From Octopus vulgaris (lineage: Eukaryota), in contig OX597823.1 of NCBI GenBank assembly GCA_951406725.2, positions 24,118,001 to 24,182,000 on the forward strand: 64,000 nt of DNA, in the 5' to 3' direction. The translations under genes and the position numbers were made by a program. Below, piece by piece: positions 9,864 through 63,063 of this stretch (positions are counted from its first letter, which is position 1; each line of letters opens with the position of its first letter). Under the pieces are notes generated by a model, which worked only from the letters and a program-made list of their open reading frames with translations, was not told where the DNA came from and made no database searches.

Positions 9864-10100
9864 GTAATCTGATCCAGTTTGTGAAAATAAAAGATGCATT
9901 TCTGGATACATTTGGAAAATCACCATTCAACAAGGAAAATGCAACAGAAGAGTGTGCAGCGAAATGTTTGTCTTACTCAAATTGTTTAGCAATTGAAGTA
10001 GATAATAAAAATGGGAAATGTTTCTTATCAACAAAATCTGCAGCTTCTTCCAAGACATTAAAGGCAGCGAAAAAGAAAGATTACTACCAACGTACAAAAC
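9864..10100 (+). CDS. Exon A1, PAN/apple-like domain type A
   Basis: ttctag|GT...AAAC|gtaatt; 237 nt; NLIQFVKIKDAFLDTFGKSPFNKENATEECAAKCLSYSNCLAIEVDNKNGKCFLSTKSAASSKTLKAAKKKDYYQRTK; C-x3-C-x5-C-x11-C-x-L with terminal YY as in the PAN core. Confidence 0.87.
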
Positions 10101-11004
10101 GTAATTATTCTTTGTATTTTAATATTATGATTCTCTTTCCCTCTTTTTCTAAAATTTGTGATTTCACTTGTAATATATAGTATATAGACAACTATTTCTG
10201 TAAAGGCATTGACAGGTTTAACTATAAGAACAGACATGATCCTGAAGAAAAAGCAATATTTGGAAGTGTGAATACTGTTAGGACATTCTCATACAGCATT
10301 TGTTCACCTCAAACATTTGATGTTTTCAATCATTGCTTTAAATAAGAAAGGAAACTCTTGTTGTATTTCTTAAATCAAGGTGGTGGTTGTCGTCGTCTTC
10401 ATGGCAGCACCAGTGGCATGTGTGTGTGGGGGTAACATTTTCAAATTTTGGCTGAGTGACAGTGTCTTTGAAGAGACGGTGTTAGTCAAGGCCATCACTC
10501 CCAGTTCTTGTCTGGTATAATATTGTGTCAACCCCAAAAGGCAAAGTTGACCTCCATAGAGTGTGAAATTGGAATTTAATGAATCAGAAGAAATACCACG
10601 CAGTGGCATAGCTTAAGTACAGTATCTCACTACTAGTTGCAGTCCTTCATAATCTGGTATGAAAAATAACTGGAAAAGTAATGCCAGTCTACATAGTTAT
10701 GTATCTCCTATATTTTGGCATGTTTACTTGGGATGGACACCCTTCCTATCACCAACCATTATACAACATACAGAGATTATATATTCCCATACAACTGGAG
10801 TTTGAAAAGTTGTCTGCTGGGATAAAAGGATCCTCTCAACATGAAATAAATTCCTATTCAGAATAGTTCCAAAACAAATTTACCTGTAATTTCTTGCACA
10901 CTTTGATCTCAAAGATTTTGTCCTTTCCTATCAAAATCATTAATTCTCGAATCACTGGATATCAAAGGAAATTCACTAGGCTTAGTGATCTCAATATTAG
11001 AATA

Positions 11005-11871
11005 CTCAAGAAAAGCCCTTTCATCACAAATACTGGGTTAAACTAAACAGAAAAGAAATGGACAGGGAAAAATCCCAACAATGGCTGAGAAGCTCAGAAC
11101 TCAAAGCAGAGACTGAAGGATTTTTAATTGCAGCACACAGCACAAGACCAAATCCTTCCCTCCAGAAATTACCAAAAACATGTAATGAAAAGAAATACAT
11201 GTAACTTCAGAATATGTGAAGATGGACAAGAAACAATAAATCATATTGTCTCTGGCTGCTCAGTCCTGTGTGCTAAGGAATATATTCACAGACACGACAG
11301 TTGGAACCTATGTACACTGGAATCTATGCCAACACTATGAAACAACAGAAAAATGATGGTATAGGCACATGCCAGAAAAGGTCACTGAAAATGAGAACAC
11401 AACCATACTCTGGGATATACCAATACATACAGACAGAGAAATTAAGATCAATAGGCTGGATATAGTTGTCAGAGATCACCATGAAAAAAAAAATACTTTC
11501 TAATTGATGTCAATACCAACTGGTGACAATGTCTCTCTAAAAGAAATGGAGAAACTTTCAAAATACAAAGACCTGGAAATAGAGGTAACTTGAATGTAGA
11601 GTCTAAAAACAGAAACAATTCCTATCACAGTAGGTACATTAGGTATAGTAAAAAAATATTCAGACAAATACAAAGCAAAAACACTAGGACTAATAAGTAT
11701 GTATAACATACATGAAATAGCATTACTAGGCACCACACACACAACCTACCTAAAACATTTTCAATACAGTAAAAATAAGAGCACCACAACAAACCACAGC
11801 ACATACCCAAGACACAGACCTGCACTCAGTAGTGCAGTGAAAGCACGTGATAAAAATAAGACTACTGAATT

Positions 11872-11899
<28 letters not shown>
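11005..11899 (+). mobile_element. 3' fragment of R4/Dong-like (REL endonuclease) non-LTR retrotransposon ending in (TAA)n
   Basis: LKAETEGFLIAA; zinc knuckle RICEDGQETINHIVSGC; YIHRHD; ILWDIPIHTDREIK; KEMEKLSKYKDL; (TAA)n at 11871-11899. Confidence 0.8.
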
Positions 11900-11902
<3 letters not shown>

Positions 11903-12266
11903 GAGCACTCAGAGTGCAAACCTCCACCAAGGCAATACCAACATCCTCTCAATGATTAGCCAGAGCTGATTTTTTAAATGAGAATATCTGAAATAAACTC
12001 GACTGCTCTCACAAACGAGAATACTAAAAATGAACTCGAACTCTCTCAAAAATTAAGTAAAAAATCAAGAAAAATAATCCAGACACCTTGTGCAGTGCCA
12101 GATCATCTCCAAAATCTAATTAGTTTGTACCAGTCACGTGGCCAAAGATCCCTGAAAGTTTCATCTGAATCCACCCAATGGTTCTTGAGATATCTTGTCC
12201 ACGGACAAACAAACAAACACGACTGAAAACAATAACTCTGCCTTCACTAAGGAGAAGGTAATAATG

Positions 12267-12298
<32 letters not shown>

Positions 12299-12711
12299 TT
12301 TGTCAGATGGTGAGAGGGAAGAACCATTAACACACTGGACAGAATGTTTACAGGCATTTCATCCATATTTATGTTCTGAGTTCAAACTCTGTCAATGTTG
12401 CCTTTGGCTCTCATCCTTGTAGAGTTGATGAATTAAGTAACGATCAAGTACTCAGGCCAATGTAATCTGTTAGTCCCTTCCACAAAATTTCAGGCCTCAA
12501 AACATTAGATAATTATGTAGAAGTAGCATATAAGGAAATTATAAATAAAATATTAGAAAGCCTTCTGGTTCAGTACTTTTTATATGAACAATTTATTGTG
12601 GAAACACAATCCATCCACAACAATAATTTTCAGAGCATGAAATCCATCTCAAAATTCATTTGAATTAAACAGTAGCTGCACAACATCGTGAAATATATTT
12701 GCCACTTAAAC

Positions 12712-12987
12712 GTGGCTAACCCTTGAGGGTGGATGCTACTGTGGTTAACCTTTGAGGGTGGATGCTACTGTGGCTAACCCTTGAGGGGGGATACTACTGT
12801 GGCTAACTCTTGAGGGTGGATGCTACTGTGGCTAACCCTCGAGGGTGGATGCTACTGTGGCTAACCCTTGAGGGTGGATGCTACTGTGGCTAACTCTTGA
12901 GGGTGGATGCTACTGTGGCTAACCCTTGAGGGTGGATGCTACTGTGGCTAACCCTTGAGGGTGGATGCTGCTGTGGCTAACCCTTGA
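12712..12987. repeat. Minisatellite, 9.5 x 29 bp (GTGGCTAACCCTTGAGGGTGGATGCTACT)
   Basis: Units start at 12712, 12741, 12770, 12799, 12828, 12857, 12886, 12915, 12944 and 12973 (partial); 0-2 substitutions each; no spacers. Confidence 0.95.
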
Positions 12988-13369
12988 AGCTCACCTCATT
13001 CTTTAGATTGTAGATAAATTATATGTACATTCTACTTCTGCTGGTAAGATTAAATGGCCTTAACAACACTTGACAAATTGGGTGACTATCAATTGAACAG
13101 TACTTAGACTATACAAAAATTCCCCACTAGTAGAGGAATGCACTAATAAATTATATGCACCTTAAATTTTGAAACAGCTTTTCAAATGTTTTTTGAAGAT
13201 GTGCTACAACTCGTATGAATTCTGATTAAGTAGTCATTTTGTAGACCACTTACTTTTTAAAAATAAATTGTCCATTTAAATCACATTAGACACCACATGT
13301 TTTATAATGTTTAATATGTCTGTGTTTGAATATAAATTGTATTTCTTGTTTTCTTTCTTTTTGATCTAG

Positions 13370-13603
13370 TTTTTAGTGACATTTTTATATTTAAAAATGC
13401 TTACATACCAAAGCATGATACTTTTGGACAACTGAAAAATGTGAGCTTAGATGAGTGCAAACATGTTTGTTATCAGACTTCAGGGTGTAACTCTTATGAG
13501 TATAATGAAATAAATTCGCTATGTGATCTAAGTAATGTAACTCACCTGACTCATGAACTTCAACACAACAATGAAGGTTGGGATATTTACATAATTAACC
13601 CAG
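13370..13603 (+). CDS. Exon B1, PAN/apple-like domain type B (absent from ORF track)
   Basis: Pyrimidine tract + tctag|TT...CCAG|gttagt; 234 nt; FSDIFIFKNAYIPKHDTFGQLKNVSLDECKHVCYQTSGCNSYEYNEINSLCDLSNVTHLTHELQHNNEGWDIYIINP. Confidence 0.88.
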
Positions 13604-14680
13604 GTTAGTAGAGAGTTTTCATTTTATTTCATTGCGTGTGTGTGTGTGCATGCATGAGTCTGTGTGTTGGTGTATAATATATATATGTGCATGTACATAC
13701 ATGCATATGTAAAATTTATGTAATGTGTACAAGTAGATGTACAACTGCTACTGTTAATTTTGGAGCTCCTCATAGATTATCATGGTCCAGTCTGCTTCAA
13801 GTATAATGGTTAAGAATCTGCTATACTTAGTAGTTGAAGAAATTACAATGAACACAGGTTTACATTATTAGCTCCAATGTACATCTTACCATTGTGGTAG
13901 CTTGAAACACTGCTTTAGATGTTTTGGTATATTTGAATGCTTAACCAGAATGCATTAAATTGTTGAAAACTAAATGCAATAGTGTTTCCTGATGATCCAA
14001 ATGCACTTGGAATGCAGGGCTCAAAACAACCATAATGATGAATTATACATAGGAACTAATAATATAAACTTGTGTTTGTTGTAATTTCTCTTTCACCCCC
14101 TCCCCACACACAAATTAACCCAAAAAGTAAAGTTGATAGGCAAATAGCTTTAATATTTCCATTGAAGTTGTAGAATTTTCATAATTTATTCAGAATTACA
14201 TTATGAACTTCAATGTATTATCATCATTGCTTTAATGTTCACTTTTCCATGTTTGCATGGATCAGACAAAATTTGTTGATGTGAAATTTCTATGGCCAGG
14301 TGTACTTCCTGTTGCCAACACTCACCTGTTTGTTTATATTAGTAAAATAATGCTTCTTCATGACCAGACAAGCTTTTCATTGAATATTGGAAATAAAGGA
14401 TATGCTAGTGGAACTCATTTACAACTAACACAGGATGTCAAGACATGGAGACAATAACACAAAGACACGCGCACACACACACACACACATGCACACACCC
14501 ATATACTTATAGATATGTTGGGTTCTTTCAGTTTTGTTCTGTTAAATCAATTCACAAGGCTTTGATCAGCCCATGGTTGTAGTAGAAGACATTTGCAGAA
14601 GGTGCAACATAGTGGAACTGAATCCAGAACCAAGTAGCTGTAAACATATATATATACATACATACATACATATATATATG

Positions 14681-14733
<53 letters not shown>

Positions 14734-15181
14734 ATATATAAAACTGAGAATGTGTGCCTGTCTGTGTGTCTGTGTGAATCCCTAACACTTGAGAAATACA
14801 CAACCAATTTCATTCAAATTTTACACATGCCTTACTTAGGGTCCATGTAGTGTCATGGACAAAAAATGTTTAACTTCTTGCCTAGGGTGAGCCCACAGCA
14901 ATATCATATCTTCTCCACTATTTCAGTATTATGTGTATTATGTGAAACAAAAACATCTCTGTATTGTAACGTCAGATACTTACATTTTAATAATGAAACT
15001 AGTAAAGTCAAACTATTATATAACAGGGATGAACCATTAACAGTGGACATCCATTTTGCTAGAAGAAGATCTGCTATGGTCTTATATGCTACACCAGTAG
15101 TTTTCAATTCATATTAATCAAATTAATATTCAATTTCTCACCCTTATTATTTTGAATTTAAATTTACATGTATATATAGGG

Positions 15182-15218
<37 letters not shown>

Positions 15219-15281
15219 GATGTATATATATGGTTGTGTATATATATATACATGTATATGTATACATGTATGTATACATGT

Positions 15282-15748
15282 CGTTCGTGGCCGTTTGCCA
15301 GCTCCGTCTGGCCCCGTGTCGGTGGCATGTAAAAGCACCATCCGTTCGTGTCCGTTACCAGCCTCGCCTGGCTCCCGTGCCAGTGACACGTAAAAGCACC
15401 ATCCGTTCGTGGCCGTTTGCCACCTCTGACTGGCCCCGTGTCGGTGGCACGTAAAAGCACCATCCGTTTGTGTCCATTGCCAGCATCGCCTGGCCCCGTG
15501 CCGGTGAGACGTAAAAGCACCGTTCGTTCGTGGCCGTTTGCCAGCTCTGTCTGGCACCTGTGCAGGTGGCACGTAAAAAGCACCCACTACACTCATGGAG
15601 TGGTTGGCGTTAGGAAGGGCATCCAGCCGTAGAAACACTGCCAGATCTGACTGGGCCGTCCAGCTTCACAGACCCCAGTTGAACTGTCCAACCCATGCTA
15701 GCATGGAAAGCGGACGCTAAATGATGATGATGATGATGATGATGATGT
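15282..15748 (+). mobile_element. 3'-end copy of the RTE LINE tail (five ~60-bp units, conserved tail, (GAT)n)
   Basis: Matches 3115-3640: GGCACGTAAAAGCACC units, GGAGTGGTTGGCGTTAGGAAGGGCATCCAGC, CCCATGCTAGCATGGAAAG, (GAT)n. Confidence 0.85.
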
Positions 15749-15888
15749 ATATGTATAGCTGTATATGTATACATGTAGATGTATATATATATATATAGAT
15801 GTACATGTAATATGTACACATATATATACACATATATACATGCATACATATATAACCCATACACACACAAACACACACACATACATAG

Positions 15889-16195
15889 GTGCAGGTGTGG
15901 CTGTGTGGTAACAAACTTGGTTCCAAAACACATGGTCCTCAGTTCAGTCCCACTGTGTGGTACTTGGCATGTGTCTTCTGCTATAGCCTCAGAACAACCA
16001 AAGCCTTGTCAGTGGATTTTTTAGACAGAAACTGAAATAAATCAATTGTATATATATGCATGTATATATGTAAGTCTATGTGTGTGTCTTTGTGTTTTGC
16101 CTTTATCACTGCTTCACAACTGCTGTTCATTTATTTACATCCCCATGACTTACTGGTTTCACAAGAACTAATAGAATAAGTACCAGGCTTATCTA
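15889..16195 (+). mobile_element. tRNA-derived SINE; related copy on - strand at ~14500-14640
   Basis: TGGCTGTGTGG A-box-like, GTTCAGTCCC B-box-like; body AAAGCCTTG...GGATTT..GACAGAAACTGAA is shared in reverse with 14520-14640. Confidence 0.65.
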
Positions 16196-17630
16196 CATAA
16201 AAAAACACTAGGCTGTGTCTCATATTTTTGTTTGCCCACTCAGTTGTATCTATCAATTTATCATTGTATGTGTGTGTGTGTGTGTGTATATAAAACACCC
16301 TAATGGGGGGGCCTTAACTCCCAAATTTTAGTAATTTCTTTTATGATCCAAAACTAGTTCAAAAGTACTGAATGGATCTTTATGAAATTTGGAAATTATA
16401 TTCTATGCATAAGAGCCATAACCCCCATGACAATTCATATATTTTTCCTGTTGATAATATTTTTACCATAGATATTAGACACAAATAAAGTAATATTTAT
16501 AAAATTTCATCTTCTTACAAGTTAGAAAGACCCCTCCATGGGAAATTAACACCCACAATTTTGTCATTCTATCTAAGCAAAAATTAATATAGTTGTGCTC
16601 TTGGAAGCTGTAGGGTTACCCGAGCATAAAAGATGAGCATTATTTCTAATTCAGTGGTACAACAGTGTAACAGTTTTCTTTGACATACACTTACATTGTG
16701 ATTTCTTCAATGTGGTGCATAAATTGTCAAGTAAATGAGAGGTATCTTTGCCTCCACTGATTCAGTTGCAAAGTGTTGAGTAAAGTTATTTGATTGCAGA
16801 CCTCCTTTCAGTCTTTTTATTATCACTGAGTCACACATAGTCCCCAGATGCTAACATTGATTTCAAGGCCTTCCCAGATGAGTGACTTGTTATTCAAAGA
16901 CATTTATAGATTGTAAATTTATTCTGTCCAGCTACGTATAATTATAGTGATTATTTGCAAACTTCAGAGGTGACACTTTCATTTCTCCTTAGCCCTCACG
17001 TCACACAGTTGTTAATGTTTATTTCAGTTGGGTCATGCCCTTCCAATTGCTATAGATTCATAATGCAATTGCTATAGTTCATAATGCCTGTCACCTGGAT
17101 GGTGACAAATACTACATTGGGAGTGGTAATGACTAGGGTAGGGTAGCTGACTGCTTATTGTGATCATTTGTCTTTTGGTTTCCTGTAGCTTTGCTCTCTT
17201 TTACAAACCCAGTGAACATATATTTCCTATTTCAAAGAAATTCAAACAAAATATATAAGACCCAAGTTAAAAAGAATCTCAACAATTCAACTTCTCTGCT
17301 TGACATTAAGATGCCCATCCCCAACAAGGGCCTTAACTCTCACATTTTAGAGCTCCATGACCTTCATTTTTCTGGGGCAAAATCTTTTTAACAGGTTCCA
17401 TAAGACTGGAATTTTGGAATATGCGCATAAAAATCAGTAGATACATGTGGCACGATTACAATTTTTTTAGGGTGTGTAAAGAGAGAAAATAACCCTCATC
17501 TGCAATTTTGATGAAATTCGAAACAGATATTCCAGTTCATTACAGAAAATATAACAGAAAAGTCTAATTCTTCAATTGAATGTAACATGGGCAACGCTGG
17601 GTATCTCTGCTAGTATATATATATATATAG

Positions 17631-17691
<61 letters not shown>

Positions 17692-18239
17692 ATATACTCC
17701 CTTTTATGTACGTCATTGTACATAAACGAGAGTAACAACTTAAAATCGCTGGACATAGAACAAAATCCATTAATGACGTTGAATGGATAAAACTGAGTAA
17801 ATTAGTAGCCTAGATATTTATTAACCGAAGCTGGCTAAAACTTGTTGATGTCACGTTTTGGTTTACATGAAGTTGGTAATGATGTTGGTTATAAGCAAAA
17901 TCAAATGAAGTGGATAGGGAACAAAATGACATTCCTTGAAGGTATTGGGGTTTGTATGAACTGGGTGGTATAACTACTGCTGACAGGCACTGGAACTACA
18001 AATACTAAAATTACTAAAACATTTATGCATGAATCCCCACAAAATGGTCAGGTACTATTGCATATACATGCTTTCTAATTGGTCATTATTCACACTCACA
18101 TGTTGGCACCCAGTTGAATATTCTGTAAACAAATTCTCTCACATATACATACATACACACAACCTCACAATAGAGATATATCAATACACACATGCACACA
18201 TATGTATAAACATTAAAACATACATACCTCTCCAACACT

Positions 18240-18600
18240 ACCCTCCTCACCAGCACCCACCATCGACCATATCACATCACCGACTCCTTCACCTGCACTT
18301 CTACCAATATCATCTATTGCATCTCCTGCTCTCTCTGTACATCAGACAAACGGGATGCCGCTTGGCTGACCGGTTCATGGAACACCTCCAAGACATTCGC
18401 CTCTGCAATGTCAGCCTGGTCTCACACATTTCCGCTCTACTGGTCACTCTTTCCAACACCTGTCTGTCTTCGGATTGTCCTTGCACAGAAGCCATCCAGA
18501 CTCCCGTTTGCGCCGTAAACAGAGATTAATCTTCTCTCTTCACTCCTTTGCACCACGTGGGCTCAACTCTCCTCCCCTCTTCATCTAACCTCCTCTCCTT
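18240..18600 (+). mobile_element. Penelope-like element GIY-YIG endonuclease fragment
   Basis: ITDSFTCTSTNIIYCISC...LYIRQTGCRLADRFMEHLQDI (frameshifted GIY-YIG signature). Confidence 0.75.
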
Positions 18601-19111
18601 GCCTCTCTCCCCCTCACTCCTACTTCCTCCCACCCACCTCTCCTCTCTTGCTCCAACTCTTATCTTCACTCCTACTTCTCTTCACCCCTACTCTGTCTCT
18701 CTTACTCTCTTTCTCTTTTCTCTCATAACCATCTTCTCCTTCTCCCTTCATCGTCAACCCTCCCCCATAAACCCACCCCATCCCTACACATTCCTACCCC
18801 ACCTTCCCTATCCTTCCCATCCCATCCCTTACAACCTCTCCCACATACCCCACCTCTACCCCACCCTCTGGTTCACCAGTCCTCAGTCAAATCGTCCAAT
18901 CCATACAGGGTTACATACATGCATCCATCCAGCCAGCCATACCTACATACATATATGCATACATGTATGTATATATTTGTACCTGTATAATAATTTTCTT
19001 TGATTTGGTTCACTTAATATCTTTTCTTGTAATATTATCATCATTTGCTTGTTCTCATCCTCCTCCTAACATGTGCATACCATTGTTATCAATTTCTGTT
19101 ATCTATTTCAG

Positions 19112-19282
19112 TTTTCCTGTCTGTTGACTGTGGACCTCCAAAAGATGTAGGTGGTGCATTGAAATCCTATAAAACTACCACCTTTAAATCTGAAGTGTTG
19201 TACACTTGTGAAAATGGAGACCAACTTAAGTCGACTTGTGAAAGGAACAGCAGATGGTCTCCTGTTGTGGATGCCTGTAACG
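19112..19282 (+). CDS. Exon C1, short Sushi/CCP-like domain
   Basis: tttcag|TT...AACG|gtaaca; 171 nt; FLSVDCGPPKDVGGALKSYKTTTFKSEVLYTCENGDQLKSTCERNSRWSPVVDACN; C-x-PP...V-x-Y-x-C-x2-G...C...W...C Sushi motif. Confidence 0.87.
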
Positions 19283-20482
19283 GTAACATAAATAGAGTCC
19301 CTTTTGTCATATATGTAATTTTTTTATATGTTTGTATTAATAGACACATCTGAAATTTGACTAGTGATCGTCATTACTGTCGCTGCCACCATCTGCAGTT
19401 GTTTTCAGCTTAAGAGGCAGAGAAAAATAGGTTTGCTAAGAAATATAAGATGGGGAGAAATTTCCCTCAAGGGGAGAGAATTGCTGTGAGAGAGATTTTA
19501 TTTTTTATATACTTATTTTATTATGTGAGTAGATATTTCTATATAATTCACTCTTTTTTTTTATATTTTGGTTGTTCTAGTAGCTGCAAGTAGATGCAGA
19601 TAAATTCATTCCACTCTGATTTGGAGCTTGTCAATGCACTACAACTTGGGATAAAACTACACGGTCATTTAAAACATTTAGGAACTGTGTAAACTATCGA
19701 CTTATCTTTTTTTTTTGTTTGTTTTAAATAGTAGAGAAAAGTGGTGAGAGAGTGAGGACATTAAAAGCCCAAGTCACAATTGAGATTAACATTATGCAAA
19801 TTACAATCGATATGTTCTATTTTTTTGCTTTTAACAGTGGAGGAGAGCTTAACTGATAGAAAGTATTAATGTTATCGATAAAAGACTATTAAAATGAGTG
19901 GTTGTATACTGTTAACATAACGTGACAGTCCTGTATGGGAATTACACCAACACTGTTTCGCTTGTGAAATTCTTTTGTGCGATATTATAATCACAAGGAA
20001 TACTCATGTCAGTCAATAAACAGACTTTATTGTTTTTATCTTTCACAACAATATCTGGTTTATTAGCTTTGATGGTTTGGTCTGTATGTAATGGAAAGTC
20101 CCAAAGAACCATTACCATTTCTCCCTCAGTTACAGTCTCAGGGTGGGGATGAATATCACTTGTCAGCAGTTTTGATTTTATAATTCTGACATATTAACCA
20201 ATGCAGATATTAGCCAACTCTGTCATGTCTTGATTTATACTCCACTGGTCCTAAGATTTTTACACCTAGAGATTTGGTGGGATACTGTTTCAGTCATATC
20301 ATTGCAGAATCAGCATGTTAAATCTAATCTGTTTTTTATCACATTGGCTTGGTAGTTCTTGGTCAATAAGCTTTGATCTTGTGCACCTAAAATGAAGTCT
20401 TCACTCTCTGCCTGTAGCCTTGAACTCCTTAGACACTAATAGGTATTATCATAATTGTAATAATAATAATTATTATTATTAT

Positions 20483-20690
20483 GCCAGCCCCGTCTGGCAT
20501 CTGTGCGGGTGGCACGTAAAAGCACCCACTACATTCACGGAGTGGTTGGCGTTAGGAAGGGCATCCAGCCGTAGAAACACTGCCAGATCAGACTGGGCCT
20601 GGTGCAGCCTTCTGGCTTCCCAGACCCCAGTTGAACCATCCAACCCATGCTAGCATGGAAAGTGGACGCTAAATGATGATGATGATGATG
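20483..20690 (+). mobile_element. RTE-tail copy with (GAT)n
   Basis: Near-identical to 3460-3640. Confidence 0.85.
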
Positions 20691-20694
20691 ATTA

Positions 20695-21235
20695 TTATAT
20701 GTTTGGATTTTGCTTTGTATTTGTACATGTTGACTCCAAGTCTCATCCAGACAACAAGTTAGAAAATTAAAGTCGGGGTACTATATTTTTGGTTTTGCAC
20801 TAAGTATTGTTCTAGATAGTGTCTGTCAAAACAAGAAAATTATAAGTTTTTTCTAATAGTAATTTGATGGTAAGAATACAGTAAAAGGTATTTGCTATTA
20901 TGTACATTCAAAAGCACTTTTGATAATGTTCAAATGAATATCCTGGTATCTGAGACAGGGAGCAGTCAGCCCCTTTTGTTAACATCCCTGGGGTGCCTAT
21001 GACAAGAGGTATTGGTCTAGTCTTCAGGTTCTACATTATTACCAATTTCTTTTCCAAAATCTTTATATTTTCTGTTTTTAGTAGGTCTTGACAGATATAT
21101 TTATGTTGATTAGGACAGTGATATTGATGAGGAGGCATGATTTTTATCTGAGATCCTTCAGTATAATTTCTGGCTTATTGGCATCTATCTTTGTCTGAGA
21201 TCCTTCAGTGTAATGTCTGGCCTATTTGCATCTAT
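20695..21235 (-). mobile_element. Diverged R4/Dong-like 3' fragment
   Basis: Reverse strand resembles the RPDIILKD...LINI..KIxKYKDL end and shares 3' sequence with 39945-40200. Confidence 0.5.
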
Positions 21236-21243
21236 TATTATTT

Positions 21244-21960
21244 AAAGCGGCAAGCTGGTAGAATTGTTAGCACACCAGGCAAAATGCATACTAGTGTTTC
21301 GGCTATCGGTACAATCTGAGTTTAAATTCTGCTGAGGTCGGCTTTGCTTTTCACCCTTTCAGATCAATAAATTAAGTACCAGTGAAACACTGGGGTTAAT
21401 GCAAACAATTTATCCCTTCCCCTCAAAACTGTTGGCCTTGGGCCAAAATTTGAAATTATTATTGTTATTATTATCATCAAGTGTGAGAGCAGTATATGCC
21501 ATCAAAGTGGCACTGGAGTACAAATATACAAAGCCCAATATACCCATCATGACTTCTTGTCTGATAAGGGTACAGCAGGCACATGCATCACAACTGTATG
21601 TGCATGACATGGTGATTTCATATCAAAATAAACAGCACATGACCTTGCAGGTAAGACCCAGTTAGAATTTTCTTCAGGTCAAGTAGCTCATCCTGCTCAA
21701 AAAGTCCCTGAACAAGGATTATGGAATTTGAATAAAACACCCATGTTTCCTGAGGTGAATTATTCAAACACCAAAGAATTCCTCTCAACACATGGCTATG
21801 ATGCTTCCCAGCTACTTCTGCTCATGATCAGAGATGAACATATTGTAAGCCACCAAAGGACATGCTTAACTGATTAAGATCAAGCAACTAACAAGCAAAT
21901 TTGTGATATTGAACAGAATATTTGCTGTAGCCCATCTTTTACATCCAGAAAAAACATGCC
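21244..21960. mobile_element. SINE (21244-21460, +) followed by a second interspersed repeat (21480-21960) also found at 37708-38060 and, inverted, at 31980-32110
   Basis: GGCAAGCTGGTAGAATTGTTAGCA...TTAAGTACCAGT SINE family; CCAAAGAATTCCTCTCAACACATGGCTAT...GATCAGAGATG shared among the three loci. Confidence 0.7.
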
Positions 21961-52160: not shown

Positions 52161-54240
52161 CCTCCAGAAGTTCAAGCACATTTACAGCTCAGGTTTATAC
52201 GAAGACAGTAACCCACCAGTTTCAAGTAATATGAACAGCCTTGCCATCAATAGATTTAGGAAGAAATTAACATAAACCTTCAACAAGTTAGATTTTTATA
52301 GAATGATTAATACCAATCTAACTACATTCTGCAAAGTAGTTATTATTTTAGAATTGATGTCTGGTATCAGGTAAGCCTAACAAAGAGAACAGACACTTTC
52401 ATTGGAATTTCAACTACTATTTCCAAGCTGTAACAAGAAACTTAGGAGGGAGCACTGCAAAGTTAATCGCCAATTTATCCACAGATAGAGATTTGTGACA
52501 GTGTTTTTACTGTACAACAACAAAGTACTAGCTAGTATTAGTTTTAGTGTGAAATTAGTATAAACAGAACATTTTCTTCTTCCATACTTGAAAGTAATTA
52601 GAAAGAGGATAACTTGATTCATTCCACTGTAAAAATGTCCATGTCTACATGGACATTTTTATCCTCCATTAGACACCACTTTTTCCTCCGTTAAACACAC
52701 ACAAATATCACAAGCTTATGAAAGTACATAGTATTAGGGTTTGTTACTCCTGTGTAGTAAACATAATTTCTAGCATTGTGTATTATAATGGGAAATCCAC
52801 CCTTTTTTTGCAGACACCCACTTGTGACTGTCAAAATTAATCACCCTTCTCTAAGAGAAATGTACCTTTCTACAACAGTGGTTTATAGAGCCACCATGAC
52901 TCCACCTGATGATTTACCATGGGATTCACAGCCAATAACTTCAATGGAAGTTCCACTCAGCAGATATACTCCTTCAATTTCATGTAGAGGAATATATCCA
53001 CTTCCCTGTCCTGTCTCATCTGGAGACTTTAAAATCAGGAAAATGATCTTCATCGCATAAGTTCAAACAACTCACCAAACCCACTTCCTAGTCAGAAGAC
53101 AATTTTTCTGTATCTAACTAGGCCACAGAAAGCACTTTCCACTGATCACCAGCTCCATTTCGTATGAAAACTCACTGAGTGGAAGATTGATAAAATTATG
53201 GTTGATGATGCACAGATATGTGCTGAGGCTGAGATATGCCCAACAGTTCTTTGATGGTGAACACATATGGTTAGTGTTTGTCCAAGGATGAACTGGGGAA
53301 AAAGCAGCTTGTCTCTTCAGGGAACTGCAGTCCTTGATCAATTGACGATTGAGACTGGGTGCTTGTCATACGAAATGTCATCACAACACTGTACCATCAG
53401 GTTATGTGATTGATGGAACTTCCATTTTGGTGTTCTATTGAAGATTAATGGATGGTAAAAGCAACGACATTCTCAGGAAAAATTTGTGAATTGGTTGGTC
53501 TGTTCCCGGACAGAGCTCATGGATAAATTCCAGAAATCGTTGGCCTGCCAATTCTACTAATGAGTATTGCCACTTTGTGATAAGTTCTAAAACAAATTGA
53601 ACTGCTGTTCAGCCACACATGTTAAAGACATAGGCAAAGTGACAAAACTGTTCTGCATGCACTTGTCCAGTCCTTGAGCCTTGCTGACATGAAGCTATGT
53701 TGTCACATTTAAGATGGATCTGGCTGTCGCTTGAATCCCTCATGATCATTCTTTTGCCTACATTTGACTTGGAGGAACAAACAATCTTTATCTTTGGTGG
53801 CGTTGGTGAAAGTTGTATGGAGGTAAACAACATAGAATGGGCTGTAGATATGACATACTCATCATTAGCTAAGATCTCAAAAACATTTTTAAGGTTTCAC
53901 TTGAAAAGAAAAGAAGTGATGCCTATCAAAAAAGTCTTTGTTAGGTGGATGAACAGGACAGTTCTGAGTATACAGCTGTAAACTGGAGACAGACTACTGA
54001 AAAAGGGAACTTGTCTTAGTGGTTTGGGTGACTTTAGCTTTGTGGATTTCCACAAATAACCATTGGATGTTTCCCATAATTTGGGGAAAATTTACTTTGA
54101 AATTTTTGATTGTTTGGTATTTTACATTTTACATGCTCTTTTACATAATCCCACATTGCATCATCCTCTACCATCCCAGTGTCATTTACTACTCTTAGTG
54201 ATTAATAAAGAAAACATCATCATCATCATTATTATTATTC

Positions 54241-55270
54241 AAGTGGTGAGCTGGAAGAATTGTTAGCATGCTGGATAAAATGCTTAGCACCATTTCATTT
54301 GTCTATGTGTTCTGAGTTCAAATACTACCGGTATTGAATTTGCTTTTCATAATTTCAGGATCAATAAAATAAATACCAGTTGAATGCTGGGTTGATGTAA
54401 TTGACTTACCCCTTCTTCTGAAATTGCTTGCCTTGAGCAAAATTTGAAACTACACTTTTAAGGTAGTGACTGGCAGAATTATTAGCATGCCAGACAAGAT
54501 GCTCAACAGAATTTCATCCATCTTTATATTTTGAGTTCAAATTCCACCAAGGTCAACTCTACCATTCATTCTTTTGGAATCTATGTAATTCACTATCCTG
54601 TTGCCTCAAAATTTCAGGCCTTGTGCCAACAATAAAAAGGATTATTATTATTATTATTTGAGGCAGGGAGCTGGCAGAATTGTTAGCACACCAGACAAAA
54701 TGTATGATGACATTTTTTCTAGCTTTATGTTTTGAATTTAAATTCTACCAAAGGTTATCTTGACCATTCAAGATGACACACTCCCCTAAAATTTGTGCCA
54801 GTATTATCACCGTTATCATTATTGAGGCAGTGAGCTGGCAGAATTGTTAGCACATTGAGCAAAATACTTTGTGGTATTTCATCTGTCTTTACGTTGTGAG
54901 TTCAAATTCTGCCAAGGTCAACTTTACCTTTCATCCTTTTGGGGTTGATAAAATAAGTACCAGTTGAACACTAGGGTCGATGTAATCAATTCATCCCCTC
55001 CCCCAAAATTGCTGCCCTTGTGGAAAACTTTGAAACCATTATTATTATTATTATTGTTGTTTGATAAAGTCAGTGAGCAAGGAGAATCATTAGCACTCCA
55101 GGCAAAATGCTTTGCGGCATTTCATCCACCATGTTCTGAGGTTGACTTTGCCGTTCATCCTTACAGGGTCAATAAATTAAGTACCAGTGAAATACTGGGG
55201 TCGATATGACTGACTAGACTGCTCCCCCAAAATTTCAGGCCCTGTGCCTTTAGTAGAAAGGATTATTATT
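54241..55270 (+). mobile_element. Cluster of five head-to-tail SINE copies separated by (ATT)n
   Basis: Starts at ~54241, 54460, 54661, 54825 and 55067 (GAGCTGGCAGAATTGTTAGCA...GAGTTCAAAT...TTTCATCCTTT..GGGTxGATAAA.TAAGTACCAGT); other copies at ~12305, 21244, 39700, 40310. Confidence 0.8.
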
Positions 55271-56429
55271 TGATGGAAACTCCCAGCTTATTTTGCTGGC
55301 AATGGTGGCAAGTGTCAACTGTCCACAACCAGCAAACTAATGCAATGCTTGTTTATTGGTCCTGCTTTGAGAACCCTACTATTATTATTATTATCATTAT
55401 TTTCATTAGTATTTTCTTTCAGTTCTGTTTCCATTTCTTGCCAAGTGTCTTCTTGACACCCAGAACAGAGAAACATACTGTATACATTGGTAGGTCATTA
55501 AAACAAATGTACCAGATTGTTCATTTACAGAGCCATGTGATAGAGAAAAAGGAGAAAACAGAGAGGAAAGGGAAAAAATAAAAAAATAGAAAAGTAAACA
55601 AATGAAATAAAAGGGAAAAGGAAAGAAAATTCACAGTGACTAATATTGTTGATGTTGTTGTTATTATTATTATTATTGCCGTCATCCTGGCAAGCTTTGC
55701 TTGACCTCACTCTGTAGATTTTATGTAGAAAAAAATCACAAAATAATGTATTTGCACCCTTCAAGTTCATACCATTGTAGACAAGTTTTTGCTGTTGAGC
55801 GGTATGTTTATTTACCTGTTTTGTCTCCCAGTTTTGGGGGACAGGTCAATTGATTTTGGTTTTTAATCATAGTTGTTTGCATTTTCCCTACCAACATGGA
55901 GAAAACACTTTAAAACACAGTGATGCTCGCATGTGATAGAAGGGGAGAGAGTGAGGAGCATCACCAAACATCAATGAGAGAGAATGCGAGCATGGGGAAG
56001 TGATTTCACGCTGATAAAATGAACTAATGATAGTTGTATTTTTGTCACAAAAAGGACAAAAAGGCCAACAGGGCCAATTTTTCGCAAAGGATCTCTTAGA
56101 AGATCTTCAGAAAAGCGAAGGCTCCAGTTTTGACAACATTGTTCGAAATAAAAACAGCAATTTCGAAAATGTAAACGATGAGTGTCCTTTCAATGAGAGT
56201 CAATGGATGAGTTGAGCATCAACAACAACACCAACAACAGCAGTAACAGCAACAACAACAACATCAGCAGTACCATCAACGACCACAACAACAACAATAA
56301 CAAAGGTGACAATAATGGCAGCAACAAAAGCAACAACAACAATGATGAAGCTGGAATAACTCTTCTAAACTTACTTTCTCTGGAGCAGCCAAGTCATCTC
56401 TTCAGAGAACACAATTCTCTGAAGAGGAA

Positions 56430-57300
56430 CTTAAAATGCTAGACAGCTAGTCGAAAGAGACGGAATAGCTGTAAAGTTAAATACCGCCGCCCACCCCATC
56501 TGAGACAATCTAGGATAAAATATGCCGCACAGTGACATACTGTACAATCAATTTAAAATCAAGGTGGGTGGAAAGAGCCACAGAGGCTCAAATACAAAAA
56601 GCTTTAGGTTCTGTCTGGAATCTAAAAAAATATATACAGAAAAGAAGGGCCTATGGAATGGTGGACATTTGATTCTGCACTGAGGAAGAAGCCAAACATC
56701 ACTCTCTAAATCCCCTCCAAAGCAAGGCACTGTTGTTAGTTCCTTTCCACTGCAGTCAGAGACTGGCTAAAATCATCATTCAACAGGTGCCACCAGAAAT
56801 AGCTATTCTTTGGCAAATTGCTGCAGTGACAATAGACATTGAGGAAAACTCAAAAATCCTTGAAGCTTATCAGACCAAAAAAGAGAACTGGTACAGGATG
56901 ACCATAGAACTTATACAAATGACACAAAAGAATGTGGATCTCATCCCAGACCAGATCCTTCTTCCTGGGGGCAGCATAAATCCAATCAGGGTAGATGGAA
57001 GGAAAGCAATGTGCCACATTTGCTTTTCAACTAACCAGTTAAAAGTCTTCTGCCCTAGACTGAAGGAAAAAGAGAGACAGGCACCTCTCCTCCCTACACA
57101 AACAATGGCCTCCAGAACTCCAGCAACAACAGCACCATCATCATCAGCAGATTCAGCTGTGGCAACATCAACAACAATACCGATGCCGAGTTTCCCCAAA
57201 CACTTTTCAACACCCGAAGATATTCCACTTCCCGATGGGGAGCAGGTGGACATCACAGGTGGAGTCAGACCATGATGAGGAGTGGAAGTTGAAAACTGAA
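56430..57300 (+). mobile_element. Decayed gag-like ORF1 of a non-LTR element (Tx1/L1-like)
   Basis: ORF 56733-57275: IRVDGRKAMCHICFSTNQLKVFCP, a degenerate CX2CX4HX4C knuckle after a V-x-G-R motif; upstream frame is interrupted. Confidence 0.5.
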
Positions 57301-57654
57301 AAAAGAAAAAGAGACAGAAAAAAAACCCAAACATATAGACAAATAACAACAATCCTCATCCACACAAGAAGCAGAAAAAAAATCAAAACAAAAACAAATA
57401 CACCCAAAACAGTCACTGTATCAACAACCACAACCATCATCACAGCAACAACAACAAACACAAATTAAAGAGACTAACATTACAAACTGCTTGGCAATAA
57501 GCACAAAAAACAATGAATTAATGAAGTACATCATGACACACAAAAACATTACACCAGACGATTTTGTCACAACCACAATCTCCCTACCTGCACACATACA
57601 AATCATTCAAACAACATAAAACACATACACATTCTTAAAAACGCAATTCACACA

Positions 57655-58065
57655 GGAAATTGGAGACTTGATCGCACTGCTTGTTAAAATTCCTGAGTAT
57701 TTTGTAATGTTCATTTCCCATTACTCCCTCTGGCTTGTGTTCATAACTTTGTTCAGCTCTCTCAAGGTTTGCTTTATTGCACAGCAGCCAGTGGACATAT
57801 CTGGCCACATTGTTATGTCTCCTTTTATATTCACATTGTGCATACAGCACTCACTAACAATATGGCTTATACTTTCTCCTTTCTCAAGGTACATCCTACA
57901 CTGTAGTGAGTCAATGCTTTTATTAATGTTATATTTGGAGTAGTTTGTTCTGAGATCTTGTTTCTGAGTGCTGCACACTAATGCCTCATTGGGCCCTTTT
58001 AAGCCTCCTTTCTGCAGCCATTGCCATGTTCTATTCCTTTTATTCTTCAAAAGCTGATTATGCAT
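57655..58065 (-). mobile_element. R4/Dong-like LINE fragment
   Basis: TWQWLQKGGLK..EALV, CRMYLEKGESISHIVSEC, YKRRHNNVARYVHW, YEHKPEGV; adjacent (ATT)n. Confidence 0.78.
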
Positions 58066-58652
58066 TATTATTATTATTATTATTATTTCTTTATAGATAA
58101 ATATGTAAAAGTACCAGCAATTGATATCTGGTGCATTATTTTATAATTGTTTTATACAAACATAACCCAGCCACAAAATTATTTTTCAGCATAACACACA
58201 CTTCTCAGAATTGATTTGAATTGCTGTACATCATGACACATACACAAAAGCTCACCTGAATGTTTCAGCTGTAGATAATTCATTTATATATACCTCTATT
58301 GGTAGTGTTTGTTTAACATTGAATGGCCATAATAATGCTTGATATTTTGGTTGACCACCTGTTTAAGGTCATACTAACCATATAAATGCACACCATGAGA
58401 GAGGAGATGTATAGATGTATTGTCTTCAGCCAAAATATTGGGACAAGTTTTCAATTAATTCTTATGATGTTATATAACTCACATGAATCATGACTAGGGT
58501 ATCATTTGTACATCAATTATCTGTTTTGTCCATTTTCAAAATTATGCACTAGATGCCTTACAATAATTATCGTATGGAGCATCTGGGTATATTTGTGTTT
58601 GGGTGGATGGATGGATGAGTTAAAAATAAACTGGTTATTTTTTTTTTTGCAG

Positions 58653-58883
58653 CTAATGATAAGCCTATTGTGTTGAAAAAAGTTAGCATGGCAAAGCAGG
58701 ATATTTTGAAACGGTTTAAGAATGTGAACTTAAAGAAGTGTAATGAAGCTTGCTATCAATATCTAGAATGTAATTCTTATCAGTACAATGAGGAGGAGAA
58801 GTTATGTGAGCTGAGTAATGTGACTCAGTTGACTGATAAACTTAAACCCAATGGAAGTTGGGATGTATACATTATTAATCCAG
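58653..58883 (+). CDS. Exon B4, PAN/apple-like type B
   Basis: ttgcag|CT...CCAG|gtcagt; 231 nt; NDKPIVLKKVSMAKQDILKRFKNVNLKKCNEACYQYLECNSYQYNEEEKLCELSNVTQLTDKLKPNGSWDVYIINP. Confidence 0.88.
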
Positions 58884-60005
58884 GTCAGTAGAGTGTTTCC
58901 ATCTAATTTATTGCTTGCATTGCTATGTTTATATATATATATATATATGCATATTACATCTATGTGTGTGTGATCATCATCATTTAAGGTCAGTCTTCCA
59001 TGCTGGCATGAGTTGGCCATTTTCACAGGAGCTAGACAACCTGGAGAGCTGCACTAGGTTTCATTGTCTGCTTTGGCCTGGTTTCTACTGCTTGATGCCT
59101 TCCCTAATGTCAACCACTTTATAGAGTGCTTTTTAATGTGATACCAGCATTGGCGCTTTTTATGTAGCACCGACTGCAGTGGGGTCACCAAGTAAATTGT
59201 GAGACTAAGACATCTCTCCTTGGAGAGAAGTGGAAACAAAGTAGATGACTTCATGTCAGCTTAGAGTTAAAGGTATAATAGAGAGATAGAGATAGGTGTC
59301 TTACTATAGAAGAAATAGGGAGAGTTTACGAAAAAAACAAAAGACAAAGACAGGTGGTGTACAAAACAAACAGATGTATTAGTATAACGCTCAGGAATAG
59401 AAAAATTCTTTTACGTTTTGGGCCTACACTCTTCTACAGAAAGGGATACAGAAAAAAACAAGGAGAGAAAAAAATGTGTGTAGTGGCTAATGATCTATCA
59501 TGGCGACAATAGATCGTTAGCCACTACATGAAATTTTTTTTAACGAAAGTTTCAACAAATACTGCACAGATGCTGTGGGTTCAGAGTATGTAGGGATTTA
59601 TGGGAAAGAATTTTTCCTAGAGGTTAGGGAGAGGAGTTTTGGAAAATTCACATGACCCGACTGTTTTCCCCTCATAACTTTCAAGAAAATGGATTTCTTT
59701 TAATGAAATTTTATACAAATACCTTTCAAGTTAACATAGATTATGATTATGAAGAAATGTGTGGGGAAGAGAGGGCATGGAGAGAGGAGTTTCAAAAAAC
59801 AGTTTTGGATCAGGAACACCAAATAAGTTGGAACTATTCCATTTTGATGGGGATTTTTCACATTTTTTTAACCACAGCCTTCTAAAAGATGTGTACAGGT
59901 AACATCTTTTTATGAAAAAAAGGTTTTTAACATTTTTTGTACAACCCCCTTCCCCTTTCACTTTCACTTCGCTTCTCTTCATATATATATATACATACAT
60001 ACATA

Positions 60006-60066
<61 letters not shown>

Positions 60067-60729
60067 ATTTACTTAATTTATTTTGACTTATTTTTTTAAA
60101 ATTATGTATTTCTACATTTTTATCCCTTTTATTGTTATTCACTTTAGTTTATGCTTGTATTCTTCTTTCATTATAGTCTTGTCCTTTCTCCCTTTTCCTT
60201 GACATTTTCTCTTTCTAGTTTTGTCTTCCATTTGTTCGCTATCTACTTTTCTCGTAACACACATAGAAAAAGTCTCCTCATCTTCACAACCTCAGACGTC
60301 TGATCTCCATAACATAATGCAATAAAGGTTTTTACTTATAATCCATTATAGTTAAGCATCAAATTGCAACCACAACAGTGAAACATATGAGAACAGATGA
60401 TACAAATTTGTGCACTTCATAATTCCTTCAACATTTGTTGTGTGTATCACAAACAGTAACACCACAAGTTAAAACAGTAACTAATCAATTATAATCTAAG
60501 TAGATGGGATGTTCATCATTTATGTGATGCTTTAAATTCAAGAGTAGCAGTCATTCATCTAACTATACACACAAGATAGTATGTGTGTGTGCACATGCAC
60601 GCAGGTGTGAAAATGTCTTCAGTTTGTTCACTCAATATCTTTTATGCTAAATTTATCACTATCTCCTCATTCTCCCTCTCTTTCTAACATATTCTCAAAA
60701 TTGATATCAATTTCTCTTATCACTTCTAG

Positions 60730-60900
60730 TTTACACAGAAACTGACTGTGGACAGCCAAAAGATATTGCTAGAGCATCAAAATCTTACAACACCACTACC
60801 TTTCATTCTGAAGTGACTTATTCTTGTCCAGGAGGACATAAATTAAAAGCTATATGTAAAGAAGGCAATAGATGGCTTCCAGTAATGACTTCTTGTAAAG
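60730..60900 (+). CDS. Exon C4, short Sushi/CCP-like (absent from ORF track)
   Basis: ttctag|TT...AAAG|gtaaaa; 171 nt; YTETDCGQPKDIARASKSYNTTTFHSEVTYSCPGGHKLKAICKEGNRWLPVMTSCK. Confidence 0.88.
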
Positions 60901-61329
60901 GTAAAAGGTTCTCACTTTTTCCTCTGTCTAGATAATTTTGTTTTATTTTTGTGTTAAGTTTCTTTATCAGTGAAAGACTGGCTATACCCATGTCAGTTTT
61001 CATGGTCTTTGTGGTTGGTTGGAGGGAGAGAAGAATTTACATAACCTCAGACCAGAAAACTTTGCAAATGCTTGCAACAGAGTAGATTTCATTAAATCTA
61101 TTCAAAGGCAAGGTAATGATATCAAATTTAGTTGATGCATTAAGTTTTCCACTAAAAACAGGAAGCAATTAGAGCATGTTCTTTCCAGACGGTTTCCACA
61201 TAGTTTCCATCCATTAAATTTCATCCACAAGTACAAGTTGTCCTTATATTTTCGAACAAGGGAATCGATTCCCTTGTTTGAAAATATAAGGACACAGATC
61301 ATGTCATATAGCCAAATGGAGACGATGTC

Positions 61330-62222
61330 TCCTGGAGCTAAATTACAGCAACACTTATCCTAAATCAGGACTGCCATATTATATTGGCAAACAATCTTTA
61401 CACCAAAGTACTGTCATTGAATATCTCTCGCTGTGAGATTTACTGTGGTTACTGTGCAAGTTGTGAAATTTGTGTTTTTGTGATCACATGTTTGAAAGGC
61501 CTGCGATTTTGTCATGGACAGGAACAAAGAGCCAACGTGAAATTTTGCGTTAAACTTGGAATGTATGTTATAGAGACATTGAGCATGCTTTGGAAGGCCT
61601 ACAGCGATGAGGCAATAGGTCATACTCAATGTTTTGAGGGGCATGGGTGCTTCAAAAATGGAAGAATGTTCCTAGAAGACAATGAATGATCCTAGATGAT
61701 CTGTCACGAGTGTCACCCTCGGAAATGTGGTATTGTGCATCAAGAATTCATCCCCCAAGGGCAGATTGTCAATTGAGGGTCCTACCACGATGTTTTGAAA
61801 TGTTTGAGGGAGGACATTCAGCAAAAGCAACCGGATTTGTATAGTATGAAGAATTGGATTCTTCACCAAACTCTTCTCAATCATGAGTTTCTTGCCAAAA
61901 ATAACATGGTACTGCTTCCACACCCACCCTATTCTCCAAATTTAGCACTTGCAGACTTCCACCTCTTCCTCAAGATGAAAATGAAGCTCAAAAGTCACTA
62001 TTTTAACACTGTTGTCAAGATCAAGAGTGAATCACAGAAGATCTTCTACCTGCTTACAGAAAATGACTTCCAGGTGAGATTCCAAGAGTGAGAGGAATGC
62101 TGGGACTGAGGTATTACTGCACAAGGTGACTATTTATAAGTAGATGATGTTAAAACTTAGGTAAATTATTTATTTTTTATTAAACATAACTAATCTGGGA
62201 ACCTTTTGATACCACCTCATAT
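61330..62222 (+). mobile_element. Decayed, internally deleted mariner transposon
   Basis: EQRANVKFCVKLG N-terminus, WILH, HPPYSPNLALADFHLF; TIR-like TTTTGATACCACCTCATA at ~62204-62221. Confidence 0.85.
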
Positions 62223-62823
62223 TCCATTATTTGACTGTTAGTTTGAGTTATTGACCCCCCACAAGATTAACAGGAAAAGTTTTCATTAGTTAGACTTGTG
62301 AAGCATTTCTTCCAAAGCTGTAACTAGTATACATTTATTCATTTAAAGCAAAGATGAGAATGATCAGGCAATTTTTTGACTGTTGAGGGATCTCTATTTA
62401 GGACATTTGAAGAACTCCATCATTGCTCTGTATTCCAAGGACAAGAGTCCTATCAAATTATTGTTCTTTGATGTACAGGTTTATGCACCCTGGGACCCAA
62501 CAACTTTCACTATTTTTGCCCCTCTCACACCATTTAGAACATTTTCCTTGTGGAGAGTATCTTCCTCTCCATCCTCATCTTTATAAATGAAACTTTAAAA
62601 ATGTCTTGTGCTATTTGCTCTGGCTCTTTAATATCTGATTTCAAATCTTGCTAATATTAACATTGCTCTTCCTGAGCCAACAAAGTGGAAAACCAATCAA
62701 GTGTAGAGACCAATTTAATTGACCAATTCAGACCTCAAATTTTTGTTCTTTTGTCTCTGTTAGAAATTATTTCTTTTATTGTTGCCGTTGTTTTCATTGG
62801 TGTAAATTTTATTTTAATTCCAG

Positions 62824-63063
62824 TTGCTGAGAACCATTTTGTGAAAATAGTAAGTGCAGCTCTAGATATATCTGGGAAAATATTGTGGAAAAAGGAAAGA
62901 GTAACAGCAGAAGCCTGTGCAGAAAAATGTGTGTCTGATGAAACTTGTATATCATTTGAAATAATGAAAAAAACTGAGCAATGTTACTTATCAAAGGAAA
63001 GTGCAGCTACCTCTAAGGAAATAAAAGCAGACAATAGCAGAAACTACTATCAACAAGTAAAAC
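62824..63063 (+). CDS. Exon A5, PAN/apple-like type A
   Basis: ttccag|TT...AAAC|gtaatt; 240 nt; AENHFVKIVSAALDISGKILWKKERVTAEACAEKCVSDETCISFEIMKKTEQCYLSKESAATSKEIKADNSRNYYQQVK. Confidence 0.89.

Follow-up and report, generated by a model that had tools for sequence, protein, structure and literature searches.

Exons of the window and the gene model that contains them

A 64,000-nucleotide stretch (hereafter the window) of Octopus vulgaris contig OX597823.1 (hereafter C10) was analyzed, in which an initial annotation had described a 53-kb array of one-domain exons in strict PAN-A, PAN-B, Sushi order (A, B and C, respectively), coding for part of a long multivalent extracellular protein. Self-comparison and six-frame translation revealed three classes of short Cys-rich frames recurring along the window, and all 13 exons were located between positions 9,864 and 63,063 in the order ABCABCABCABCA (Table 1). 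Each exon is preceded by AG, followed by GT, 171–240 nt long (a multiple of 3) and in phase 1-1, and the 13 exons joined give 2,802 nt, that is, 934 codons with no stop, in full agreement with the initial annotation. The assignment of the modules also held: Pfam PAN_1 scored above the curated cut-off in all nine A and B exons (five A and four B) and Sushi in three of the four C exons, the second reaching 19.6 bits against a cut-off of 20.7 (E 0.0013). Searching the window with all 13 exons by tblastn gave zero additional copies, and a named O. vulgaris protein matched the window exons at 100%.

The array is thus real, but it runs far past both ends of the window. Single-exon searches of the 2.8-Gb genome, followed by inspection of every C10 match, placed 106 A, 106 B and 134 C matches on C10, every one of them on the + strand at 23.27–24.98 Mb; all 346 are stop-free with callable AG..GT borders in phase 1-1. 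The map excludes seven matches (1 of 107 A, 6 of 112 B), of which six lie on C13 or C17 and one is a stop-bearing intronic fragment. The resulting gene model (hereafter the giant) comprises 349 exons, namely a signal exon, a micro-exon, 105 PAN-A, 105 PAN-B, 133 Sushi and 4 GON exons, spanning 1,640,556 nt with introns of 132–19,355 nt. Its coding sequence of 73,059 nt carries a single stop at the end and would encode 24,352 residues (2.75 MDa, isoelectric point 8.9) with 1,390 cysteines and 272 N-glycosylation sequons; four exon borders were set by hand and five exons have a weaker AAG acceptor, so that this length is uncertain by a few residues. The window exons, about 4% of the total, correspond to units 44–48 of the giant (residues 10,028–10,961). 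The long multivalent extracellular protein initially proposed was therefore supported, although the window had displayed it incompletely, the model being about 26 times longer.

Extension of the locus, as the initial annotation had advised, yielded both a signal exon and C-terminal GON exons, the latter recognized as PF08685 with an E of 1.5e-32 on the C-terminal O. vulgaris piece. The most hydrophobic 19-residue window of the giant is its N-terminus, and no membrane anchor was found in the full model. As read from the sequence, the giant likely encodes a protein that would be secreted and rich in disulfides, with about 24,350 residues.

Table 1 Positions of the features of the giant gene model (window positions unless C10 is given).
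Feature	Position	Strand	Remarks
Whole window, inside giant gene model	1..64000	+	C10 24,118,001-24,182,000 within 23,362,495-25,003,050
PAN-A exon, unit 44 of 105	9864..10100	+	Residue 10,028 onward; PAN_1 36.2 bits
PAN-B exon, unit 44	13370..13603	+	PAN_1 30.4 bits
Sushi/CCP exon, C58 of 133	19112..19282	+	Sushi 24.9 bits
PAN-A exon, unit 45	22065..22304	+	44.2 bits
PAN-B exon, unit 45	27101..27325	+	26.4 bits
Sushi/CCP exon, C59	31010..31180	+	19.6 bits (cut-off 20.7); its 4 Cys align with those of the other C exons
PAN-A exon, unit 46	34770..35009	+	40.4 bits
PAN-B exon, unit 46	41134..41367	+	43.5 bits
Sushi/CCP exon, C60	45856..46026	+	22.2 bits; error-free contig piece starts at 45852
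PAN-A exon, unit 47	50167..50403	+	36.6 bits; error-free contig piece departs from genome at 50403
PAN-B exon, unit 47	58653..58883	+	36.8 bits
Sushi/CCP exon, C61	60730..60900	+	23.7 bits
PAN-A exon, unit 48	62824..63063	+	37.3 bits; ends at residue 10,961; error-free contigs (two runs) stop at 63063
Giant signal exon	C10 23,362,495-549	+	From comparison of upstream DNA with small paralogue
Giant micro-exon, 30 nt	C10 23,363,457-486	+	From comparison of upstream DNA with small paralogue
GON exon 1	C10 24,990,060-331	+	
GON exon 2	C10 24,994,551-727	+	
GON exon 3	C10 24,997,435-576	+	
GON exon 4	C10 25,002,974-3,050	+	Contains the stop
Remaining A/B/C exons outside window	C10	+	330 exons

In public annotations the locus lies in pieces. 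Those of O. vulgaris include CAI9728790.1 ('SVEP1-like', B14–C49), CAI9728792.1 and CAI9728796.1 ('ADAMTS20-like', B87–GON), the remaining label being 'uncharacterized'. The O. sinensis pieces match consecutive giant modules at 96–100% (XP_036361601.1, equivalent to A52–C80, at 98–100%), and the O. bimaculoides models LOC128248837-40, LOC106869390 and LOC106869402 at 72–93% per module and 85.5% in GON. Read as they stand, with several models in each of the three species, these annotations describe a cluster of several separate genes, and a profile scan extended to 757,514 bases (46%) of the gene span. The models, however, begin at internal methionines within domains and most end by intron read-through; neither the signal exon nor the micro-exon nor GON was found in an internal copy; and the order of modules is unbroken over 343 exons with gaps of at most 19.4 kb, compared with 68 kb between the true paralogues described below. 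We regard separate genes as very improbable and a single gene as the reading to be held with high confidence. An assembly artefact was ruled out, the copies being 18–99% identical with diverged introns and the pieces from other species matching consecutive modules.

In the bases scanned, no further module was detected beyond one PAN-B fragment, decayed and interrupted by two TAG stops (C10 24,207,898-24,207,969, in the unit-49 intron), which is the only broken copy found. A second irregularity, a short (201 nt) and divergent PAN-B exon in unit 42 (C10 ~24,093,507-24,093,707), is also present in an O. bimaculoides model and is thus conserved.

Order of the array and its origin from a neighboring gene

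The strict ABC order of the initial annotation holds inside the window but not gene-wide, where 73 ABC, 27 ABCC, 2 ABCCC and 3 AB units were counted. A more permissive rule, in which A is followed by B and then by zero to three C modules, is broken by none of the 342 neighbor pairs, as compared with at least 115 breaks in each of 2,000 shuffles; the order is therefore not due to chance. In 14 of 28 intervals, units with extra Sushi modules are spaced by four, and peaks of module identity fall at lags of 4, 8 and 12 units (at lag 4, 0.66 vs 0.58 for A and 0.57 vs 0.43 for B), a pattern that identifies a four-unit super-repeat arising, by all appearances, from block duplications. The Sushi-less units 86 and 98, like the short B module, recur in the O. 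bimaculoides models. Within the window, the unit-47 PAN-A exon is 95–96% identical to that of unit 52 (C10 24,248,709), while its neighbors are not, which suggests a recent local conversion or duplication.

Mean identity among the copies is 58% for A, 46% for B and 58% for C (range, 18–99%), and the four cysteines are invariant in all 105 A, 105 B and 133 C modules. No stop occurs in the 343 A/B/C exons, vs about 170–420 expected from the tree lengths if they were unconstrained, and a pseudogene array was thereby ruled out. The ratio of nonsynonymous to synonymous substitution rates (dN/dS) on paralogue trees was 0.76 for A, 0.76 for B and 0.71 for C under a one-ratio model uncorrected for gene conversion, and about 1 by simple count among close copy pairs. 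Judged from these comparisons, frame and fold are tightly held with the module surfaces loose or diversifying, and chain length and fold would matter more than surface sequence.

The same data bear on the possibility that this one gene works as a cassette library, from which long-range skipping produces many shorter isoforms consisting of signal peptide, some units and GON, the full-length form being rare. Since every array exon is in phase 1-1, any skip would stay in frame; moreover, the surface residues diverge fast and the ancestral product, as described next, is a single unit. In Dscam, mutually exclusive exons of one type are grouped side by side. The exons of the giant are instead interleaved A-B-C, with no AA or BB neighbors in the 342 pairs, and the four-unit super-repeat, the Sushi-less units and the short B module, recurring as they do in O. 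bimaculoides, suit a linear protein better. Public models of two other species, as annotated, also span consecutive exons. A cassette library is accordingly considered unlikely, and production of a full-length chain somewhat better than an even prospect.

Only two sites on C10 carry GON exons, one following the first A-B-C unit and the other following the final unit, 1.7 Mb further on. The former belong to a small paralogue at C10 23,269,851-23,294,202, 68 kb upstream of the giant, which is intact and has 9 exons encoding 465 residues in the order signal peptide–PAN–PAN–Sushi–GON; the public O. vulgaris model of this gene, CAI9728787.1, is without the signal exon and PAN-A. The predicted protein is identical to GON-Abd-1 of Abdopus aculeatus (R4G2C1) at 398 of 465 residues (85.6%) with no gap and can be assigned as its orthologue. 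Because the same exon calling yields this gapless match, the small paralogue validates, as a positive control, the way in which the giant was modeled as spliced. Just two locus copies each, one in the giant and one in the small paralogue, were found of the signal exon, the micro-exon (whose query also gave one short flank-only match on C13) and GON exon 1. Between the two genes, DNA identity is 71–72% in the 5' exons and 71–75% in the 5' flanking blocks, and the A, B and C modules of the giant are up to 58, 57 and 64% identical to those of the small paralogue.

By these similarities, the giant is taken to descend from the one-unit paralogue next door through a 105-fold internal expansion. Presumably, tandem duplication of a small signal peptide–A–B–C–GON gene was followed, in one of the two copies, by repeated unequal crossing-over that amplified the phase 1-1 A-B-C cassette, at later stages in four-unit blocks. 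With the one-unit ancestor adjoining the giant, it may be read directly how a small gland protein would have grown into a megadalton fiber, super-repeats included.

Other relatives were observed elsewhere in the genome. A third GON-domain locus on C1 (49.327–49.334 Mb) is probably the true ADAMTS9/20 orthologue. Two further pairs of PAN-A and PAN-B exons, distant relatives, lie on C13 at 19.980–19.982 Mb (+) and 76.174–76.175 Mb (-), and four PAN-B-like exons, two per strand and facing, on C17 at 45.985–46.000 Mb. Database matches to the giant modules also include short single-exon open reading frames of 54–84% identity.

Relationship to known proteins

The giant shares its type of order (signal, micro-exon, PAN-A, PAN-B, Sushi, GON) with GON-Abd-1 and with GON-Sep-2 of Acanthosepion pharaonis (R4FJA6), to which its GON domain is 58.8% and 44.6% identical, respectively. 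Both names reportedly originate in cDNA work on venom glands (Ruder et al. 2013). In contrast to the 105 units (24,352 residues) of the giant, GON-Abd-1 has one unit (465 residues) and GON-Sep-2 consists of Sushi–GON (291 residues). Further relatives include PAN–Sushi–Sushi–GON proteins along with the Sushi–GON form in cuttlefish, a secreted four-PAN protein in Argonauta, and small PAN–GON proteins in a limpet and other invertebrates. The spread of small PAN–GON and Sushi–GON proteins over cuttlefish, limpet and other invertebrates indicates that the family is old, while the giant form, as far as sequences reveal it, is documented for Octopus only. The best 150 of 685 matches, of which 20 plus one were looked up by name, contained no giant named as squid or cuttlefish, which is weak evidence given that such genes are mis-annotated. 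The suggestion of an undescribed, lineage-specific protein was partly supported: the protein is lineage-restricted and no characterized full-length protein was found, but the giant belongs to the named GON-Abd-1/GON-Sep-2 family. Our literature search met no description of it; subscription papers and bioRxiv supplements, outside that search, may mention pieces. The word 'GON' was absent from the main text of the cephalopod venom papers searched.

The public labels reflect single domains. ADAMTS9, ADAMTS20 and GON-1 have the C-terminal GON (PF08685) in common with the giant, the source of 'ADAMTS20-like', but neither the 349-exon model nor Pfam scans of four pieces revealed a metalloprotease, disintegrin or thrombospondin domain, and the sole HExxH-like word of the giant lies in a PAN-B module. 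A C-terminal GON without a protease domain is the arrangement of the coleoid GON-domain proteins. Similarly, Sushi modules are shared with SVEP1/polydom, the source of 'SVEP1-like', but the vWA, EGF and pentraxin domains of SVEP1 occur neither in the exon model nor in the scans of the four pieces. Gel-forming mucins have O-glycosylated tracts rich in serine, threonine and proline together with VWD domains; in the giant, the fraction of these three residues is at most 0.38 in any 50-residue window and no VWD was found in the scans. On these sequence features, the giant is assigned to the coleoid GON-domain proteins as their paralogue; it is neither an ADAMTS nor SVEP1, and neither a mucin nor a Dscam-like locus. 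The model corrects misleading ADAMTS/SVEP1 labels of a gene hidden in three octopus annotations.

Drosophila Dumpy is a 2.5-MDa extracellular protein of three-module Cys-rich repeats that are arranged in a super-repeat, encoded by 78 exons (PMC10895422). The giant resembles it in being a megadalton triad repeat with a super-repeat (2.75-MDa model, lag-4 peak); Dumpy, however, has EGF-DPY-EGF modules in a six-unit super-repeat, whereas the giant contains no EGF-DPY-EGF repeats and has PAN-PAN-Sushi, one module per exon, with a four-unit period and a GON end. This likeness is best taken as analogy and not homology. The parallel in architecture could nevertheless point to a molluscan counterpart of Dumpy, that is, a fiber of a tissue or reproductive matrix (skin, sucker, egg string or spermatophore) unrelated to saliva, which would also agree with the absence of the giant from the salivary proteome rows listed and its low depth in four runs (see below). 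Dumpy has a ZP domain and a membrane anchor. The giant has neither, and its sister gene is salivary with 5' flanking sequence in common, so that we consider such a fiber quite unlikely.

In size, the giant is smaller than titin and than PKZILLA-1 of 45,212 residues (10.1101/2024.01.29.577497). If spliced and translated whole, it would represent a titin-class gene (349 coding exons, as compared with the 363 exons of titin, and a 73-kb frame) and a secreted protein larger than Dumpy. Such a product would raise two questions: by what means 348 introns are removed in the correct order, and how a chain of 2.7 MDa holding about 690 disulfides leaves the cell.

Expression and predicted function

None of the sequencing runs listed is recorded as RNA; contigs of four runs, whose RNA nature is a guess, were aligned on window positions 45,700–63,300. 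Error-free contig pieces from two runs stop exactly at the donor of the unit-48 PAN-A exon, one error-free piece departs from the genome at the unit-47 PAN-A donor and continues for 44 letters, and another enters at the acceptor of the third window C exon after 88 other letters; several pieces of 88–95% identity also begin near exon borders. These contig ends suggest that the giant is spliced. The junction mapping proposed at the outset thus yielded contig ends at exon borders, but no exon-exon joint among the joints listed.

The sole lead to a tissue is a secretory gland. In the posterior salivary gland proteome of O. vulgaris, the protein group of the small paralogue was detected with 18 peptides and 43% coverage (PMC7693380 Table S1 row 1238), and five identifiers of the O. 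bimaculoides pieces of the giant were not among the rows listed, so that the tissue assignment comes from the paralogue. The initial suggestions of immune recognition or gamete/egg-coat binding received no direct support.

Structure prediction for a B-C-A-B piece from O. bimaculoides gave a mean predicted local distance difference test score (pLDDT) of 85 and a predicted template modeling score of 0.57, the latter leaving the domain packing uncertain. The predicted PAN-A fold is closest to the N domain of HGF (Z 11.9; root-mean-square deviation 2.3, 77 aligned), followed by plasminogen (11.8) and leech anti-platelet protein (10.2), and that of PAN-B to apple 5 of TgMIC4 (Z 8.9), with the apple lectin SML-2 also among the PAN neighbors. 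The C module is nearest to CCP modules, with Z of at most 4.7 in this model and 6.5 in a cuttlefish model. The PAN core C-x3-C-x5-C...C is present in the giant modules. Fold and cysteine pattern are thus shared with the PAN/apple proteins (the above and factor XI/prekallikrein), from which the giant differs in having four cysteines per module, 210 copies, no protease or kringle, and 12–25% identity in structural alignments. PAN-A carries a mean net charge of +7 with conserved basic columns, as compared with about 0 for PAN-B and a unit mean of +10, and the structure search listed heparin complexes of the HGF N domain.

The GON domain, modeled on the cuttlefish relative (pLDDT 85.5), gave no PDB match at E ≤ 0.001 by Foldseek, and the wide structural search with that model was filled by its Sushi module, so that GON was barely probed. 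Its N-terminus weakly matches COLFI, below the cut-off, which we take to be a fibrinogen-like start. The GON domain of ADAMTS9/GON-1 is described as acting in endoplasmic reticulum (ER)-to-Golgi trafficking (PMC3338439), which offers a lead for the export of so large a chain.

These folds invite the view that the giant forms a secreted pattern-recognition net, in which microbes or parasites in mucus or hemolymph would be caught by 210 diversified PAN modules. The apple/PAN lectins TgMIC4 and SML-2 among the structural neighbors, the fast surface change, the basic charge and the weakly COLFI-like GON N-terminus would fit; the closest PAN-A fold is, however, a heparin-binding domain and not a lectin, and fast change equally fits relaxed constraint. 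We judge it improbable.

Tentatively, and at somewhat less than even chances, we favor instead a long, cationic, multivalent secreted fiber that would act as a cross-linker of acidic glycans or glycoproteins; the secreted gel or matrix concerned would most likely be glandular, for instance that of the posterior salivary gland. All 349 exons would be spliced in order, and the chain would resemble beads on a string, about 1 micrometer long if extended (our estimate from 3–3.5 nm per module). By analogy with the HGF N domain and heparin, PAN-A may bind polyanions, and PAN-B, like the apple lectins, may have sugars as its ligands; the Sushi modules would act as spacers, and GON would cap the chain, perhaps for assembly or passage through the ER.

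Several points weigh against this fiber and the full-length chain that it requires. All three public annotations split the locus, and in the remaining 54% of the span, any internal first or last exon of unrelated sequence would escape the profile scan; the signal peptide is called from hydropathy and paralogy; and skipping in an array of uniform phase keeps the frame. Fold likeness shows no ligand. Run depth was 2–7 and one run also contained intron pieces, the joints listed were taken up by repeats (785 more stand in the table) and included none between exons of the giant, neither a full-length transcript nor a peptide of the giant came to light, and its identifiers were missing from the salivary rows as stated above.

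With these points in the balance, it seems an even bet that the locus encodes one of the largest animal proteins, possibly the largest freely secreted one (24,352 residues, 2.75 MDa and 344 modules from a 349-exon, 1.64-Mb gene), which would be a 105-fold expansion of a venom-gland protein, replacing mucin with folded domains in saliva or another secretion, and invisible because annotations cut it up. The model provides 1,043 unique tryptic peptides for re-searching octopus proteomes.

The introns of the window contain repeats of several kinds. In the intron before the first window PAN-A exon, broken retrotransposon remains occur at 645–2932 (+), with reverse transcriptase and PHD-like frames, and at 7037–8764 (+), with RNase H and integrase frames. 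At 12712–12987, 15282–15584, 3114–3476 and 45511–45654, a 29-bp minisatellite and 61–67-bp tandem units of a common interspersed repeat family were observed, and these repeats dominate the read depth.

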